Shown here piece by piece: positions 33,648-47,144 of a stretch of DNA of 64,000 bases. The position numbers and the translations under genes were made by a program. Position 1 is the first letter of the stretch, and each line of letters opens with the position of its first letter. Source of the DNA: an uncultured Pelagibacteraceae bacterium (GTDB lineage Bacteria; Pseudomonadota; Alphaproteobacteria; Pelagibacterales; AG-422-B15); assembly GCA_902577765.1 (NCBI GenBank), contig CACHAK010000001.1:263040-327039 (forward strand), in the 5' to 3' direction. Below the pieces are notes generated by a model. That model searched no databases, had not been told where the DNA came from, and was given only the letters and a program-made list of their open reading frames with translations.

Positions 33648-34991
33648 ATGAATCTATTGCTCAAAAAAACAGCACTATCTCTAACTGCTGTTATGACTTT
33701 TTTAATTTTCTCAATACCATCTTCAAATGCAGAAAGACTGTCTTCAATGGTAGAGCAAATATTATCTTCTCACGAAGACATTGTTAATTCCAAGAAAGAG
33801 GTTGAGGAAGCATCAAGAGATGTTACCGATGCACTTTTAGTTTATGCTCCTGACTTGTCAGTAAAATATGAGGCTGGTCAAAATGACAAATATAATGCCT
33901 CTTCAAATTCTCAAATAGATGGCTTTGACACTTTTGATTGGACTTGGAAACAGAAAATAATGGACTCAGGTGCTTCCATGGCAGATGTAAGAAATAAAAG
34001 AATAGCTTTAGAGAAAAAGGAACTTGAATTTATTTCTGCTCGTAATGATCTTTTAATTGAAGCTGCGGATGCTTATCTTGGATTAATTAAAGCATCAGAA
34101 AAATTGGAGGCATCAGTCGCAGCTGAAGAAAATACAAGACAAACAACTGGTCAGGAAGAAATCAGAGTTCAAGTTGGCTCTGGATTGGCATCGGATGTTT
34201 TAAAGGCAAAAAGACAATTAGCGAGTGCACAAAAAACAGTTATTACAGATGAAAAAAGTTTTAAATCTGCAATCTATACTTACGAAAAACTTTTTAATGT
34301 AGACGATGTTAATGTTAACAGTTTAACCAAACCTAGACTTGCAGCATCTACAATCTCGATGGTTCCAAAATCTATGGAGGCAACTGTTGTAATGGCATTA
34401 TCCGGAAATCGTGACTTACAAATCGCCAAAATTGATGTTGAGACCGCAAAAAATGATCTTGCTTCAGCTCTAGCTAATTTTGGCCCAACAGTTGATGCAG
34501 AAGCTAAATACTCAGATAAGAATGATGCCTCTCACACAGGAGGAAGTCATTATGAAGAGCAGATTAAAGTTACTGTGGAATTTCCAATTTCTGGTTTTTA
34601 TATGGAAATGCCAGGTTATTTAAACGATCGTTCTGCATTGGATAGAGCTATTAATGATTTAGCTCTGAAAGAACGTGATACAGTTAAAGCTGCAAAAGAT
34701 GCCTGGGTTGAGTATGCAAATGCAAGAACCATGCTTTCTTACAGTGAGAATGAGGCGACTATTGCTAAAGAACTTTTATCAATTGCTCAAAAAGAAAGAG
34801 CTGCTGATCAAACAGATGCTGCCGCAGTGCTAGCAGCTGAGGAAGCATTAGAAGGCGCTCTAAAAGATTTATCTGATGATAGCATGGCCCTACTAACAAC
34901 TGTGTATGAAATTTTAGATGTTATTAATTTGCTTGAGCCAGATATGGTTGAAGAAAGTGTAAGAGAAGGCACATTTAATACATCATCATAA
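33648..34991 (+). CDS. TolC-family outer membrane channel of a T1SS
   Basis: Signal peptide, duplicated OEP-type repeat (ADAYLGL...SDVLKA; DAWVEY...AAVLAAE); ATG 33648 after GGGAG; precedes substrate-ABC-MFP. Confidence 0.85.
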   Translation: MNLLLKKTALSLTAVMTFLIFSIPSSNAERLSSMVEQILSSHEDIVNSKKEVEEASRDVTDALLVYAPDLSVKYEAGQNDKYNASSNSQIDGFDTFDWTWKQKIMDSGASMADVRNKRIALEKKELEFISARNDLLIEAADAYLGLIKASEKLEASVAAEENTRQTTGQEEIRVQVGSGLASDVLKAKRQLASAQKTVITDEKSFKSAIYTYEKLFNVDDVNVNSLTKPRLAASTISMVPKSMEATVVMALSGNRDLQIAKIDVETAKNDLASALANFGPTVDAEAKYSDKNDASHTGGSHYEEQIKVTVEFPISGFYMEMPGYLNDRSALDRAINDLALKERDTVKAAKDAWVEYANARTMLSYSENEATIAKELLSIAQKERAADQTDAAAVLAAEEALEGALKDLSDDSMALLTTVYEILDVINLLEPDMVEESVREGTFNTSS

Positions 34992-35040
34992 CAACTTGAA
35001 AGGTAATATTTACGGTTATAATTTTAGAAAGGAATATTAG

Positions 35041-44286: not shown

Positions 44287-45933
44287 ATGTTATTTGTTTT
44301 CAGGAAAATTTTCGCCGACAGAGTACTTTTCTTTAAGATGTTAGTTGCATCTCTTTTTGTAAACCTGTTAGCTTTGGCAACTCCAATTTATGTTATTCAA
44401 GTTTTGCAGAGATACATTGCCTATGGAGTAATTTCTACCCTTATAACTCTTTTTTTTGGAATCATATTTATAGTTATTTTTGAATTTTTTTTCAAAAATA
44501 TTAGACATCGAATGGCGAGGCAATATGAGCTAGGCAATGTGACTTATGCCAATCAGGTTTTGAATAAACTCGTAACTATAAAAACCCAGATTTACGAGGT
44601 CTCTAAAAAATTTAGGAATGACATCATAAATCATCATTTATCAAATATACAAAATACATTTTCTGCTACTAATATTGTTTCTATATTAGATGTTCCATTC
44701 ACATTAATTTTTTTACTAGCTCTTTTTTTAATTCATTATCAGCTCGGCCTTATCACCCTCTTTTTTCTAGGATTGCCGTTCTTAGTTAATAAAGTTTTAA
44801 ATGAGAGGGTACATAAACTATCTCAACAGTCTGTGATGGATAATAACAACTCATTTAGATTATTTGAAAATGTAATAACAAGAAATAGTACAATTAAGTA
44901 CTTTAATATTTTACAGTTTATAAGCAATTCATGGAACTTAATTGCTAATAGAATTGCAAATACAAGAGAAAATCTCGAAACAGAGAAAAATTTAGTTAAT
45001 TCTTTTTCAGGCCTAATAGCATCTTTATTGACTGTCTTCATTATTGGATGGGGTGCAACACTTGCGGTTGATGGACAAATATCAGTAGGTGCTTTAATTG
45101 GCGCAAATATTCTAGCTGCAAGAGCCCTTATGCCAATAAATAGACTAGTTGTACTTCAAGACCAAATATCAAGAATGGAAGACTCTTATAATGAACTGAA
45201 TAGATTTTCGAGCTACGCATCTGATAAGTCTGAAGGAAGAGAAATACAAGATCTTAAAGGTAAGATAGTTTTAGAAGATGCTTTTTTTCAATACCCTGAA
45301 CAAAAAAACCCAATTTTTGAAAGTTTAAATCTTAGTGTTTCACCAGGGGAATTAGCAGTTATTGTGGGTAACAATGGATCGGGAAAATCGACACTTATTA
45401 AATCATTATCTGGAATTCTTGAGTTTACTAGAGGAAGATTTTTTTTAGATGATATTGAAGTAACTCAACTGGCTGAAAAATGGTATCGCAGAAATTTGAT
45501 ATACTCACCACAAGAGCCAAAATTTGTTGATGGAACTATTAAAGATAATTTAATTGGTGAAACGAAAATTGAACAAAACCAATTTGTTAAAATATTAACC
45601 GACACCAACTTAATTAATTTTATAAATTCAGATAAAAACGGTATTAATAAGATTTTAGACTCAAGTGATGATCAATTGCCATTAGGCATCAAAAAGAGAA
45701 TGGCCCTGGCAAGAGGGATGGTAAATAATGGAAAATTAATATTTCTGGATGAGCCTACAGAAGGTCTAGATAATGAAGCTAAAAAATCAGTAAATAAAAT
45801 AATTAAAAACTTCAAAAATGAAAAAAGAAGCTTAATTATTGCCACTAACGATCAATCAATAATTGATATATCTGATATTTTAATAGATCTAAATTCAAAA
45901 CCAAAACCGCAAGTAGTTAAACATAAAAAATGA
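44287..45933 (+). CDS. T1SS ABC exporter (TMD plus NBD, no C39-like domain)
   Basis: SLFVNLLALATPIYVIQV, GALIGANIL, GNNGSGKST, YSPQEP, FLDEPTEGLD. Confidence 0.9.
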   Translation: MLFVFRKIFADRVLFFKMLVASLFVNLLALATPIYVIQVLQRYIAYGVISTLITLFFGIIFIVIFEFFFKNIRHRMARQYELGNVTYANQVLNKLVTIKTQIYEVSKKFRNDIINHHLSNIQNTFSATNIVSILDVPFTLIFLLALFLIHYQLGLITLFFLGLPFLVNKVLNERVHKLSQQSVMDNNNSFRLFENVITRNSTIKYFNILQFISNSWNLIANRIANTRENLETEKNLVNSFSGLIASLLTVFIIGWGATLAVDGQISVGALIGANILAARALMPINRLVVLQDQISRMEDSYNELNRFSSYASDKSEGREIQDLKGKIVLEDAFFQYPEQKNPIFESLNLSVSPGELAVIVGNNGSGKSTLIKSLSGILEFTRGRFFLDDIEVTQLAEKWYRRNLIYSPQEPKFVDGTIKDNLIGETKIEQNQFVKILTDTNLINFINSDKNGINKILDSSDDQLPLGIKKRMALARGMVNNGKLIFLDEPTEGLDNEAKKSVNKIIKNFKNEKRSLIIATNDQSIIDISDILIDLNSKPKPQVVKHKK

Positions 45934-47144
45934 CAGAAAAATATTCTAATTTAAATACAAAGTATCAAAAGACTACAAACTTGCTTTTTTACTGTTTTTC
46001 AGCATTCACTTTTATAGCGATTATTTGGTCGTTTATCTTTCAAATTGACATCGTAAGCAATGCTGAAGGCCAAGTCATTCCTGTTGGAGAAGTGAAAACA
46101 ATACAGCATTTGGAGGGAGGTATTATTGAAAAAATATTAGTAAAAGAGAGTGAATATGTTGAAACAGGACAACCTCTAGTTGTTCTTGCTGCAACTGCTA
46201 GCGAAGTAGATGTTGAGGAATTGCAGGTAAGAATGGACACTCAAATAATTAAATCAATAAGACTTGAAGCGGAGATCAATGATTTTGAGGTTCCAATTTT
46301 TCCAGACTCGCTATCTACAAAAAGAGAAAAAATAGCAAATAAATCAATGGAATTGTTCCTAAGCAGACAAAAAACTTTTGAAGGAACATTAAAAGAATTT
46401 GATACATTGGTTACAAAAGCGCAAACTGATGTAGATATCTTGTTGAGACAGGCTGAGATGAGTCAACAATTAATGGAAGAGCAAGTAACATCAGAGTTTG
46501 CTCATTTAAACATTCTCAAAGAATTGAATAATGCAAAAGGAATTTTAGAGGAAACAATAGAAAAAAGGGAAAACTTCAAGAATCAGTTTGTTGAAGAGTC
46601 AAGAAATGAATTACAAATAGCACAAAGAGAACTTTCACAATCAGAAGAAACAATGAAGAAGTTAAAAGACAGTCTTAATCGAACAACAATTACTGCACCA
46701 GTTGACGGTGTTGTAAAAAATTTATTTTTCGTTACTGAGGGTGGAGTGATTAAGCCTGGTGGCTCTATATTAGACTTAGTACCCACAAAAGATAGCCTTA
46801 TTGTAGAGGCAAGACTTCCCAACAGTGATATTGGATTTGTAAAAGTAAATCAAGAAGCAGTAGTGAAACTATCTTCAGCTGATTCAGTAAATTTTGGCCA
46901 AATTAATGGTAAGGTCATACAGATTAGTCCCGATACAGAGCAAGATGAGAATGATAAACGAATTGTATTTTATAAAATACTTGTTGAAACTGAACAAAGC
47001 TATTTCCAAAGTAAGAACAGAATATACCAGCTTGTTCCTGGTGTAAAAGTTGTTGCGAGTATCCAAATTGGCCAAAGAACAGTTGCTAATTATTTGCTGT
47101 CTCCATTTATGGGAACTATGGATCAGACTTTCCAAGAAAGATAG
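45930..47144 (+). CDS. HlyD-family T1SS membrane fusion protein
   Basis: GQVIPVGEVKTIQHLEGGII, ITAPVDGVV, GGVIKPG, LVPGVKV, YLLSP. Confidence 0.93.
   Translation: MTEKYSNLNTKYQKTTNLLFYCFSAFTFIAIIWSFIFQIDIVSNAEGQVIPVGEVKTIQHLEGGIIEKILVKESEYVETGQPLVVLAATASEVDVEELQVRMDTQIIKSIRLEAEINDFEVPIFPDSLSTKREKIANKSMELFLSRQKTFEGTLKEFDTLVTKAQTDVDILLRQAEMSQQLMEEQVTSEFAHLNILKELNNAKGILEETIEKRENFKNQFVEESRNELQIAQRELSQSEETMKKLKDSLNRTTITAPVDGVVKNLFFVTEGGVIKPGGSILDLVPTKDSLIVEARLPNSDIGFVKVNQEAVVKLSSADSVNFGQINGKVIQISPDTEQDENDKRIVFYKILVETEQSYFQSKNRIYQLVPGVKVVASIQIGQRTVANYLLSPFMGTMDQTFQER

Follow-up and report, generated by a model that had tools for sequence, protein, structure and literature searches.

The best-described relatives of the locus reported here, which occupies positions 33649-47144 of a 64-kb stretch of a Pelagibacteraceae (SAR11) genome (contig CACHAK010000001.1; this whole stretch is hereafter the window, and all coordinates are window positions), are the type I secretion systems (T1SSs) whose ATP-binding cassette (ABC) exporter lacks an N-terminal C39 or C39-like domain (CLD), such as PrtDEF, HasDEF, LipBCD and RsaDEF (PMC8277102). 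The locus shares with these systems a CLD-less ABC protein, an adaptor of the HlyD type (membrane fusion protein, MFP) and a TolC channel, as well as a cargo gene placed directly upstream of the ABC gene and a cargo with an acidic and then hydrophobic residues at its very C-terminus (DFTVA). It departs from them in its cargo, as the known cargos of CLD-less systems are enzymes, a hemophore and a surface-layer (S-layer) protein of up to ~100 kDa, whereas the present one is a 294-kDa protein without RTX repeats, and in its transporter, whose ABC and TolC proteins do not reach the curated cut-off of any NCBIfam T1SS subfamily.

Two further groups of T1SS substrates invite comparison. The giant adhesins LapA, SiiE, BapA and MpIBP are likewise giant, acidic, repetitive cargos encoded in a transporter operon, but they have a Ca2+-stiffened chain of beta-sandwich domains, a C-terminal RTX block, an N-terminal retention module and a CLD-bearing ABC exporter, often together with LapG/LapD; none of these features was found when tested for in the window locus, and the repeat region of its cargo is predicted to be all-helical. 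The other group comprises Ank200 and the TRPs of Ehrlichia and the Anks of Orientia, alphaproteobacterial T1SS substrates that carry ankyrin or very acidic tandem repeats and no canonical RTX (PMC3417381, PMC4315096). These effectors differ in having Pfam-recognisable 33-residue ankyrin repeats or short disordered repeats, in being host-targeted and far smaller, and in lacking a methionine-rich module. A first-pass annotation of the window had proposed that the cargo was unlike known T1SS adhesins and of a different design; the first part is borne out, as Pfam detected no BIg, cadherin, VCBS or RTX repeats in it, and the second stands with the qualification that T1SS cargos made of alpha-helical repeats have a precedent in the ankyrin proteins of Ehrlichia and Orientia (PMC3417381, PMC4315096).

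The transport machinery is of a known kind, then, and it is the design of the cargo that is new. We favour, with a probability of roughly 0.6, the reading that the locus is a dedicated SAR11 T1SS operon (TolC, cargo, ABC, MFP) whose cargo is an exported protein of new design. That the giant protein is a T1SS cargo of a previously undescribed design is very probable; that its product forms a surface fibre or coat is a tentative proposal. The core locus and the parts of its cargo gene, all on the + strand, are as follows.

33649-34991, + strand (open reading frame, ORF, from 33630): TolC-family outer-membrane channel, 446 aa from the ATG, Pfam OEP, with a Sec signal peptide
35041-44217, + strand: giant cargo gene, 3058 aa, 294 kDa, with a ribosome-binding site and an open frame
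35185-42024, + strand: predicted helical repeat region (residues 49-2328), ~130 units of 15 residues, consensus NPEAAADIAGAMAEA
35680-35907 and 36358-36603, + strand: Q/E-rich interruptions of the repeats (residues 214-289 and 440-521)
36919-37668, + strand: five ~45-residue units interrupting the repeats (residues 627-876)
42025-43680, + strand: Met-rich low-complexity module (residues 2329-2880, 552 aa), GMDPMM(M)G-type units and a final (PMEGM)x8
43681-43842, + strand: small conserved element EVEGFMGAMWNGVFYNPGQQAAYEAAQLADPTGG (residues 2881-2921), then a 13-Gly hinge (residues 2922-2934, 43804-43842)
43843-44214, + strand: beta domain of 124 aa at the C-terminus, presumed to serve in T1SS secretion
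44287-45933, + strand: T1SS ABC permease/ATPase, 548 aa, by Pfam and NCBIfam and by alignment to HlyB and PrtD 5l22
45930-47144, + strand: HlyD-family periplasmic adaptor, 404 aa, TIGR01843

The ORF listing gives intergenic spacings of 49, 69 and -4 nt along the series TolC, cargo, ABC, HlyD, the HlyD start overlapping the ABC stop by 4 nt. A complete T1SS locus of four co-directional genes had been called at first pass, and Pfam and TIGR01843 uphold this core, in which TolC, ABC and HlyD genes flank the giant ORF; what the call overlooked were two optional downstream genes (see below). The true TolC start is ATG 33649, which opens the signal peptide MNLLLKKTALSLTAVMTFLIFSIPSSNA and agrees with the 33648 of the first-pass annotation. 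The TolC protein matches Pfam OEP over two stretches (1.5e-33, 116.6 bits against a cut-off of 22) and TIGR01844 with only 110 bits, under the cut-off of 225, and its gene is kept upstream of the cargo gene in the three other assemblies that span the latter, namely the single-amplified genome (SAG) AG-919-C04 (L003) and two long-read genomes (L021 and L022). The ABC protein, 95% identical to its counterpart in SAG AG-917-N15, has the Pfam ABC_membrane and ABC_tran domains, and among NCBIfam families it is matched best by the T1SS permease/ATPases LssB, PrtD and HlyB, all three of which score under their curated cut-offs. Its residues 8-537 align to HlyB 147-678, and a full-length alignment is also obtained with Aquifex aeolicus PrtD (5l22); as it begins at the equivalent of HlyB residue 147, it belongs to the class without an N-terminal C39 domain or CLD, which includes HasD, LipB and PrtD (PMC8277102). 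The HlyD protein matches TIGR01843 over model positions 3-422 of 422 (4.5e-96, 322 bits against a cut-off of 208.65).

The cargo gene has a ribosome-binding site, AAAGGA, 8 nt 5' of its ATG, and its frame is open over 9177 nt. The composition of its product is extreme, with 414 Asp plus Glu against 2 Lys and 2 Arg, 376 Met, a single Cys and a single Trp; both lysines fall in an invariant GDKIK motif. The N-terminus MPVTPAEAQEFFQEVAAAGSPEEQQ shows on inspection neither a basic n-region nor a hydrophobic core, and hence no Sec signal, as had been claimed. A full-length match to a characterised family was looked for and not found, and the cargo has no match to any Pfam or NCBIfam family, one above-cut-off artefact aside, or to any PDB sequence at E <= 0.01. 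That artefact, a Pfam XPC-binding match, is the sum of sub-threshold periodic 'NP...' matches and is also given by an unrelated repeat protein (P0022), while matches to ApoLp-III, ROK and Extensin all lie under their cut-offs. HemolysinCabind (PF00353, GGxGxDxUx) was not matched by the whole cargo or by its C-terminal part, even at E up to 10.

At 52%, the GC content of the cargo gene stands far from the 31% of the genome, which might suggest a foreign origin. This is ruled out by codon usage: GC at third codon positions (GC3) is 0.22 in the repeat part and 0.21-0.25 in neighbouring genes, and synonymous codon choice matches likewise, so that the high GC stems from amino-acid composition rather than transfer. 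Nor is the gene a product of misassembly, a concern raised with the first-pass annotation. Over ~8.0 kb it is colinear, at 87-89% DNA identity, with the three independent assemblies L003, L021 and L022, the first of which holds an intact cargo ORF of 2958 aa; L021 and L022 are long-read genomes of 1.30 and 1.34 Mb with frameshift errors in many genes. Tandem repeats in the gene are merely 72-85% matched at the DNA level, and any 90-aa block of the protein is at most 63% identical to other blocks, too little for repeats to have been collapsed or expanded during assembly.

Between the window and L003, L021 and L022, the repeat region is 95-99% identical and free of indels, in genomes whose ABC genes are up to 30% apart. 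In the comparison with L003, most 100-aa windows of residues 1-2500 show 95-99% identity (62% at residues 701-800), without a gap in the window's protein before residue 2400, and from about residue 2500 onwards identity drops to 26-48%. The two genes are separated by ~700 synonymous and ~150 non-synonymous differences (dS, the synonymous divergence, 0.53; dN/dS, the ratio of non-synonymous to synonymous divergence, 0.05 overall and 0.03 in the core repeats), and dN/dS against L021 and L022 is 0.016-0.064. The repeat region is therefore under strong purifying selection, the selection that had been supposed from the size of the gene in a streamlined genome, and the high identity without gaps, together with the low dN/dS, means that the repeats are individually conserved and their number is fixed, which is unusual for a repetitive surface protein. 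In comparisons of the window with L003 and with L021 and L022, cargo codons 1-2330 have a dS of ~0.4-0.57 and the APS-kinase-like gene downstream one of ~0.5, and dS is saturated in the TolC, ABC and HlyD genes (>2.6, or past the Jukes-Cantor limit for HlyD). Judging by this pattern, the locus appears to be a recombination mosaic with a breakpoint near cargo residue 2500.

The repeats themselves are strict. Pro-to-Pro spacing is exactly 15 in 106 of 138 intervals, and higher-order periodicity is limited to a weak 30-residue and an occasional 135-residue signal. Each unit has an invariant Pro at position 2, Ala nearly fixed at 5, 9 and 13 and bulky hydrophobic residues at 8 and 12, giving one N-capped helix with an amphipathic face A5/I8/A9/M12/A13. 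AlphaFold2 modelled residues 1326-1625 as 20 helices of 11-14 residues for 20 units (pLDDT 82, pTM 0.67), and a Foldseek search of the PDB with this model returned only generic alpha-solenoids (TM 0.2-0.4), including the TPR domain of OGT (E 7e-4), consensus TPR designs and importin-beta, with probabilities of up to 1.0. The region is thus predicted to be an alpha-solenoid of ~130 short helices and not a continuous rod; the 'long alpha-helical rod' of the first-pass annotation was right as to helix and wrong as to rod. If each turn consists of two helices and adds ~1 nm, the length of the solenoid would be on the order of 60-70 nm. It holds ~330 acidic residues and no basic residues to offset them. 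The predicted stack of short antiparallel helices is shared with TPR, HEAT, ARM and PBS-lyase HEAT-like proteins, but here each 15-residue unit forms a single helix, with Pro at position 2 and a stripe of Ala at 5/9/13, the structural similarity to TPR, HEAT and ARM stays at TM 0.2-0.4, and none of the HEAT, ARM, TPR, ankyrin and Sel1 Pfam repeat models matches the cargo; nor is the 15-residue unit covered by any other Pfam family.

Repeats of related type do occur elsewhere. Over 11 units and in register, the repeat profile matches an otherwise unrelated CARDB surface protein that is Sec-exported, anchored at its C-terminus and built with NPDAAGxIIEEVAKD repeats (hhalign 99%, E 5e-18) and, more weakly (hhalign 93%), the N-terminal part of a 1479-aa RTX protein, P0025; it also matches the C-terminal tails of some MFS (major facilitator superfamily) transporters. 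Occurrence in an exported, membrane-anchored protein lends support, by sequence likeness, to an extracellular role for this repeat type. P0025 is encoded at 7655-12094 of L033 (marine SAG GCA_902549325.1), with 15-residue Pro-periodic helical repeats that are not Ala-rich in its N-terminal part and no T1SS adjoining it. Proteins with such 'NP(D/E)AAGxI' repeats (P0022, P0025) have 10-20 units of ordinary composition beside other domains, unlike the cargo with its ~130 Ala-rich units, Met-rich module and adjacent T1SS. Three other candidate relatives (P0019, P0024 and P0029) were rejected, their period-15 matches being spurious and due to EF-hand-like DTNGDGKITxPEIAG repeats.

The Met-rich segment had also been read correctly from the sequence. 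It is 41% Met, 21% Gly, 12% Pro and 9% Asp, with 71 MxM and 88 MxxM motifs and neither His nor Cys. Every divergent relative, down to loci with an ABC of only 44-57% identity, keeps a Met content of 21-41%, with variable sequence and length; the module of L021 and L022 is ~1 kb longer. The module recalls Ctr1, with its thioether-only 'Mets' motifs, and CopA and CopB, with their Met-rich repeats; together with SilE/PcoE, these metal-binding segments share with it dense MxM/MxxM motifs with Asp and an extracytoplasmic setting, presumed in the case of the cargo. The likeness is one of motif content, and the cargo module is set apart by its 552 aa, its 41% Met and its lack of His. By analogy, a segment so rich in thioethers might bind soft metals, for example Cu(I), or absorb oxidants.

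The C-terminal domain carries the invariant motifs QDTFVFxL and NFxxADGDKIK and the invariant end DFTVA. AlphaFold pLDDT exceeds 90 over most of it, is ~70 in the small element that precedes the hinge and falls below 50 in the Gly run. In a Foldseek search of the PDB, its ten best neighbours are all C-terminal or RTX regions of T1SS substrates, among them MIS38 lipase, RTX block V of CyaA and the alkaline protease AprA. Together with the order C-terminal domain, ABC, HlyD, which is preserved in 17 of 17 related SAR11 loci, these weak matches lend support to the T1SS-type C-terminus that had been proposed. Its invariant motifs apart, the domain is the fastest-evolving part of the locus, with mean pairwise distances of 0.49 against 0.35 for ABC and 0.16 for HlyD. 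A partial Mantel test over 11 loci showed that it co-diverges with the ABC (r = 0.47 given HlyD, p = 0.003) and not with HlyD (r = -0.08 given ABC); this would fit recognition of the domain by the ABC, though physical linkage of the two genes contributes to the correlation. In the most divergent allele (L005, ABC 44% identical) the Met-rich segment is kept, and the C-terminal domain is swapped for genuine RTX-like GGxGxD repeats and a different tail.

The public record holds this protein only in pieces. An exact-sequence look-up found no entry for the cargo, and in a search of a 5.8-billion-cluster index with the full-length sequence the limit of 8000 candidates was filled by Ala-rich noise and nothing scored, a result that says nothing on absence. 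Searches with the C-terminal domain and with the N-terminal 50 aa recovered only fragments, of 68-203 aa and 36-83 aa respectively, and an exhaustive HMMER search of 1.84 billion representatives with the repeat profile gave 569 matches in which true orthologues appear as pieces only (for example P0020). The N-terminal fragments end ~60 aa in, and the C-terminal ones begin in the Met-rich part. Protein sets contain only fragments because short-read SAG and metagenome contigs (L001, L002, L004, L005, L023-L032; P0001-P0017, P0168-P0180) end within the cargo gene; apart from the window itself, only L003, L021 and L022 span it. Proteomics has a matching difficulty: in-silico digestion with trypsin yields pieces of 1155, 694, 1148, 2 and 59 residues, and since there are only two Lys and two Arg, standard trypsin metaproteomics would miss the protein. 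No description of the locus was found in the literature searched on SAR11 and Pelagibacter. The large coastal SAR11 'autotransporter adhesin' of Freel and colleagues (PMC12636525) is a different gene, KEGG K19231, beside type IV pilus and type II secretion system genes.

How might such a protein reach and serve the cell surface? We suggest that the 294-kDa chain, which lacks a Sec signal, is synthesised in the cytoplasm, and that the cognate CLD-less ABC, like PrtD and HasD, would recognise the 124-aa beta domain ending in DFTVA. The chain would then leave C-terminus first through ABC, HlyD and TolC, so that the poly-Gly hinge and the flexible Met/Gly/Pro/Asp segment would be the first to emerge outside, and the ~130 fifteen-residue helices would afterwards pack onto one another, unit after unit, to build up a long alpha-solenoid of very acidic character. 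The product might be an envelope-associated fibre or coat of fixed length, in which the conserved solenoid would serve as a cell-proximal scaffold, and the length-variable Met segment and hypervariable C-terminal domain as an exposed distal end. A precise structural or binding role of the scaffold is suggested by its fixed length and the conservation of each repeat, and exposure of the distal end by its variability. Alpha-helical repeats are mechanically weak, and weak helices or uncompensated acidic charge could keep the cargo unfolded, or easily unfolded, inside the cell and let it be stable in Ca2+/Mg2+-rich seawater; such salt-dependent folding would be a functional counterpart, by analogy, of the Ca2+-triggered folding of RTX proteins. 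The fullest version of the proposal is speculative and, taken as one claim, less likely than not. In it, a fixed-length polyanionic solenoid fibre would bear at its tip a flexible 41%-Met domain for the capture of Cu(I) or the quenching of oxidants on the SAR11 surface, the T1SS signal domain would diversify in step with its matching ABC, and the whole would be hidden from short-read assembly and from trypsin.

Several points weigh against a T1SS-exported surface fibre or coat. The AlphaFold2 model of the repeats was built on a shallow alignment of 10 rows, all of them the cargo's own paralogous blocks. In structural comparison the C-terminal domain has only weak matches (E 0.02-0.3, TM 0.3-0.4), and no NCBIfam T1SS-target domain, Pfam or RTX model matches the cargo C-terminus. 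The co-divergence test covers 11 loci in which the C-terminal domain and the ABC gene are physically adjacent. A solenoid with minutes to fold before its C-terminus was made would need to be unfolded for export. Finally, a scan of ORFs between 18 and 62 kb, within about 15 kb of the locus, revealed neither a retention module nor a LapG or LapD family, a retention module being something that sequence cannot exclude; retention at the surface is to that extent unsupported, and release possible.

Release is the core of the alternative that fares best, in which the same secretion route delivers a soluble extracellular polyanion, with the solenoid as carrier and the Met module as a scavenger of Cu(I), Ag(I) or oxidants or a binder of hydrophobic molecules. 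That neither LapG/LapD-type control nor a retention module was found among the ORFs scanned nearby is what it would predict, the CLD-less ABC exporters typically serve released proteins such as HasA, proteases and lipases (PMC8277102), and the density of MxM and MxxM motifs in a module without His or Cys, its likeness to Mets motifs and the persistence of Met-richness across divergent alleles would all suit a scavenger. SAR11 bacteria cannot reduce sulfate and rely on exogenous reduced sulfur. We nevertheless consider release unlikely, as losing 377 sulfur atoms with every molecule would be costly, a public good is hard to keep in dilute seawater, the strict conservation of ~130 distinct repeats exceeds the needs of a passive carrier, and Cu(I)/Ag(I) binding by the Met module is putative.

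An S-layer-like coat that is exported by a CLD-less T1SS and assembles itself on lipopolysaccharide, as a functional analogue of RsaA of Caulobacter, would account for the alphaproteobacterial host, the order cargo, ABC, MFP with an ABC lacking a CLD, the very acidic protein with its single Cys and an invariant length suited to a lattice. It is nonetheless improbable: the cargo has no sequence similarity to solved structures, S-layer proteins included (PDB, E <= 0.01), no RTX or beta-helix part, three times the size of RsaA and a low-complexity segment of 550-900 aa; moreover, a search among close relatives recovered the locus from only five GTDB species genomes, a subset of the Pelagibacteraceae, and the searchable literature yielded no report of a SAR11 S-layer. 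Still harder to defend is a retained adhesin of the LapA/SiiE type for particles or cells that differs in its repeat fold alone. A giant repetitive T1SS cargo inside a transporter operon, adjoined in some genomes by an optional outer-membrane beta-barrel gene, does recall such adhesins, but Pfam finds neither beta-sandwich repeats nor an RTX block, the ABC is without the CLD typical of RTX/adhesin exporters (PMC8277102), LapG/LapD were not found nearby and there is no recognisable ligand-binding domain. Finally, the view that the ORF is artefactual (misassembled from repeats, low in complexity and non-coding, or part of a newly acquired foreign island), which could appeal to the GC contrast, to the breakage of nearly all short-read contigs within the gene and to the lack of a full-length protein in the 5.8-billion-cluster collection, is already refuted by a GC3 equal to that of the neighbours, by hundreds of synonymous differences that go with a dN/dS of 0.02-0.06 in the annotated frame, by three colinear assemblies over 8 kb, two of them long-read, and by internal repeats too diverged to collapse.

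The surroundings of the T1SS locus, for which the exported fibre or coat remains our preferred reading, contain the following features.

47191-48123, + strand: 310-aa beta-barrel of the inverse-autotransporter type, stand-alone without a passenger, with a Sec signal (Pfam IAT_beta 2e-31; invasin/intimin barrels 4e1t, 4e1s)
48129-49070, + strand: secreted S/T/N/G-rich 313-aa protein of no known family, starting 3 nt after the barrel stop and 46% identical in L003
33574-33599, + strand: AT-rich hairpin and T-run (AAATAGC-loop-GCTATTT-TTT) 3' of ilvD, read from the sequence
49100-49594: APS-kinase-like gene
50330-52165, - strand: aprA
52170-52634, - strand: aprB
52674-53471, - strand: QmoC-like membrane protein
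57419-59122: sulfatase

The barrel and S/T/N/G-rich gene pair follows the HlyD gene only in the window, L003, L028 and L030, and we therefore regard it as an optional two-gene cassette and not part of the core. A barrel with a separately encoded secreted protein could amount to a 'split' inverse autotransporter. The locus is flanked by housekeeping genes, valS and ilvD upstream and the APS-kinase-like gene and aprBA downstream. The hairpin 3' of ilvD is a possible terminator, read as such from its sequence, and would bound the operon on its upstream side; a consensus scan missed it because its stem is poor in G-C pairs, and the promoter and terminator scan as a whole gave no excess over shuffled sequence. 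Genes of sulfur metabolism cluster at 49100-59122, near the gene for the 376-Met cargo and in an order that is syntenic in L021 and L022, a closeness that may be coincidence. Farther upstream, between valS and a PCMT methyltransferase gene, lies a 135-aa ORF (28770-29177, + strand) whose match to the PopZ family is weak and sub-threshold, at 22.9 bits where the cut-off is 125. Long minus-strand ORFs run within the cargo gene between 36077 and 43526 (for example 42145-43374, 409 aa); these are not genes but by-products of its biased codon composition.

SAR11 bacteria are the ocean's most abundant heterotrophs and have minimal genomes. In such a genome, a cargo gene of 9.2 kb takes up ~0.7% of 1.3 Mb, and each molecule of its product holds 377 sulfur atoms; being so costly and so strongly selected in an organism without sulfate reduction, the protein must do something important at or outside the cell surface. 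The gene also lies in a blind spot, as short-read contigs stop at both of its edges and trypsin gives no usable peptides. If this is correct, the protein could be abundant in the surface ocean and yet absent from gene catalogues and metaproteomes. Beyond SAR11, the cargo would widen the known export range of CLD-less T1SSs and define an uncurated 15-residue extracellular helical repeat, and the locus would offer a natural case of a secretion signal co-diverging with its ABC exporter.

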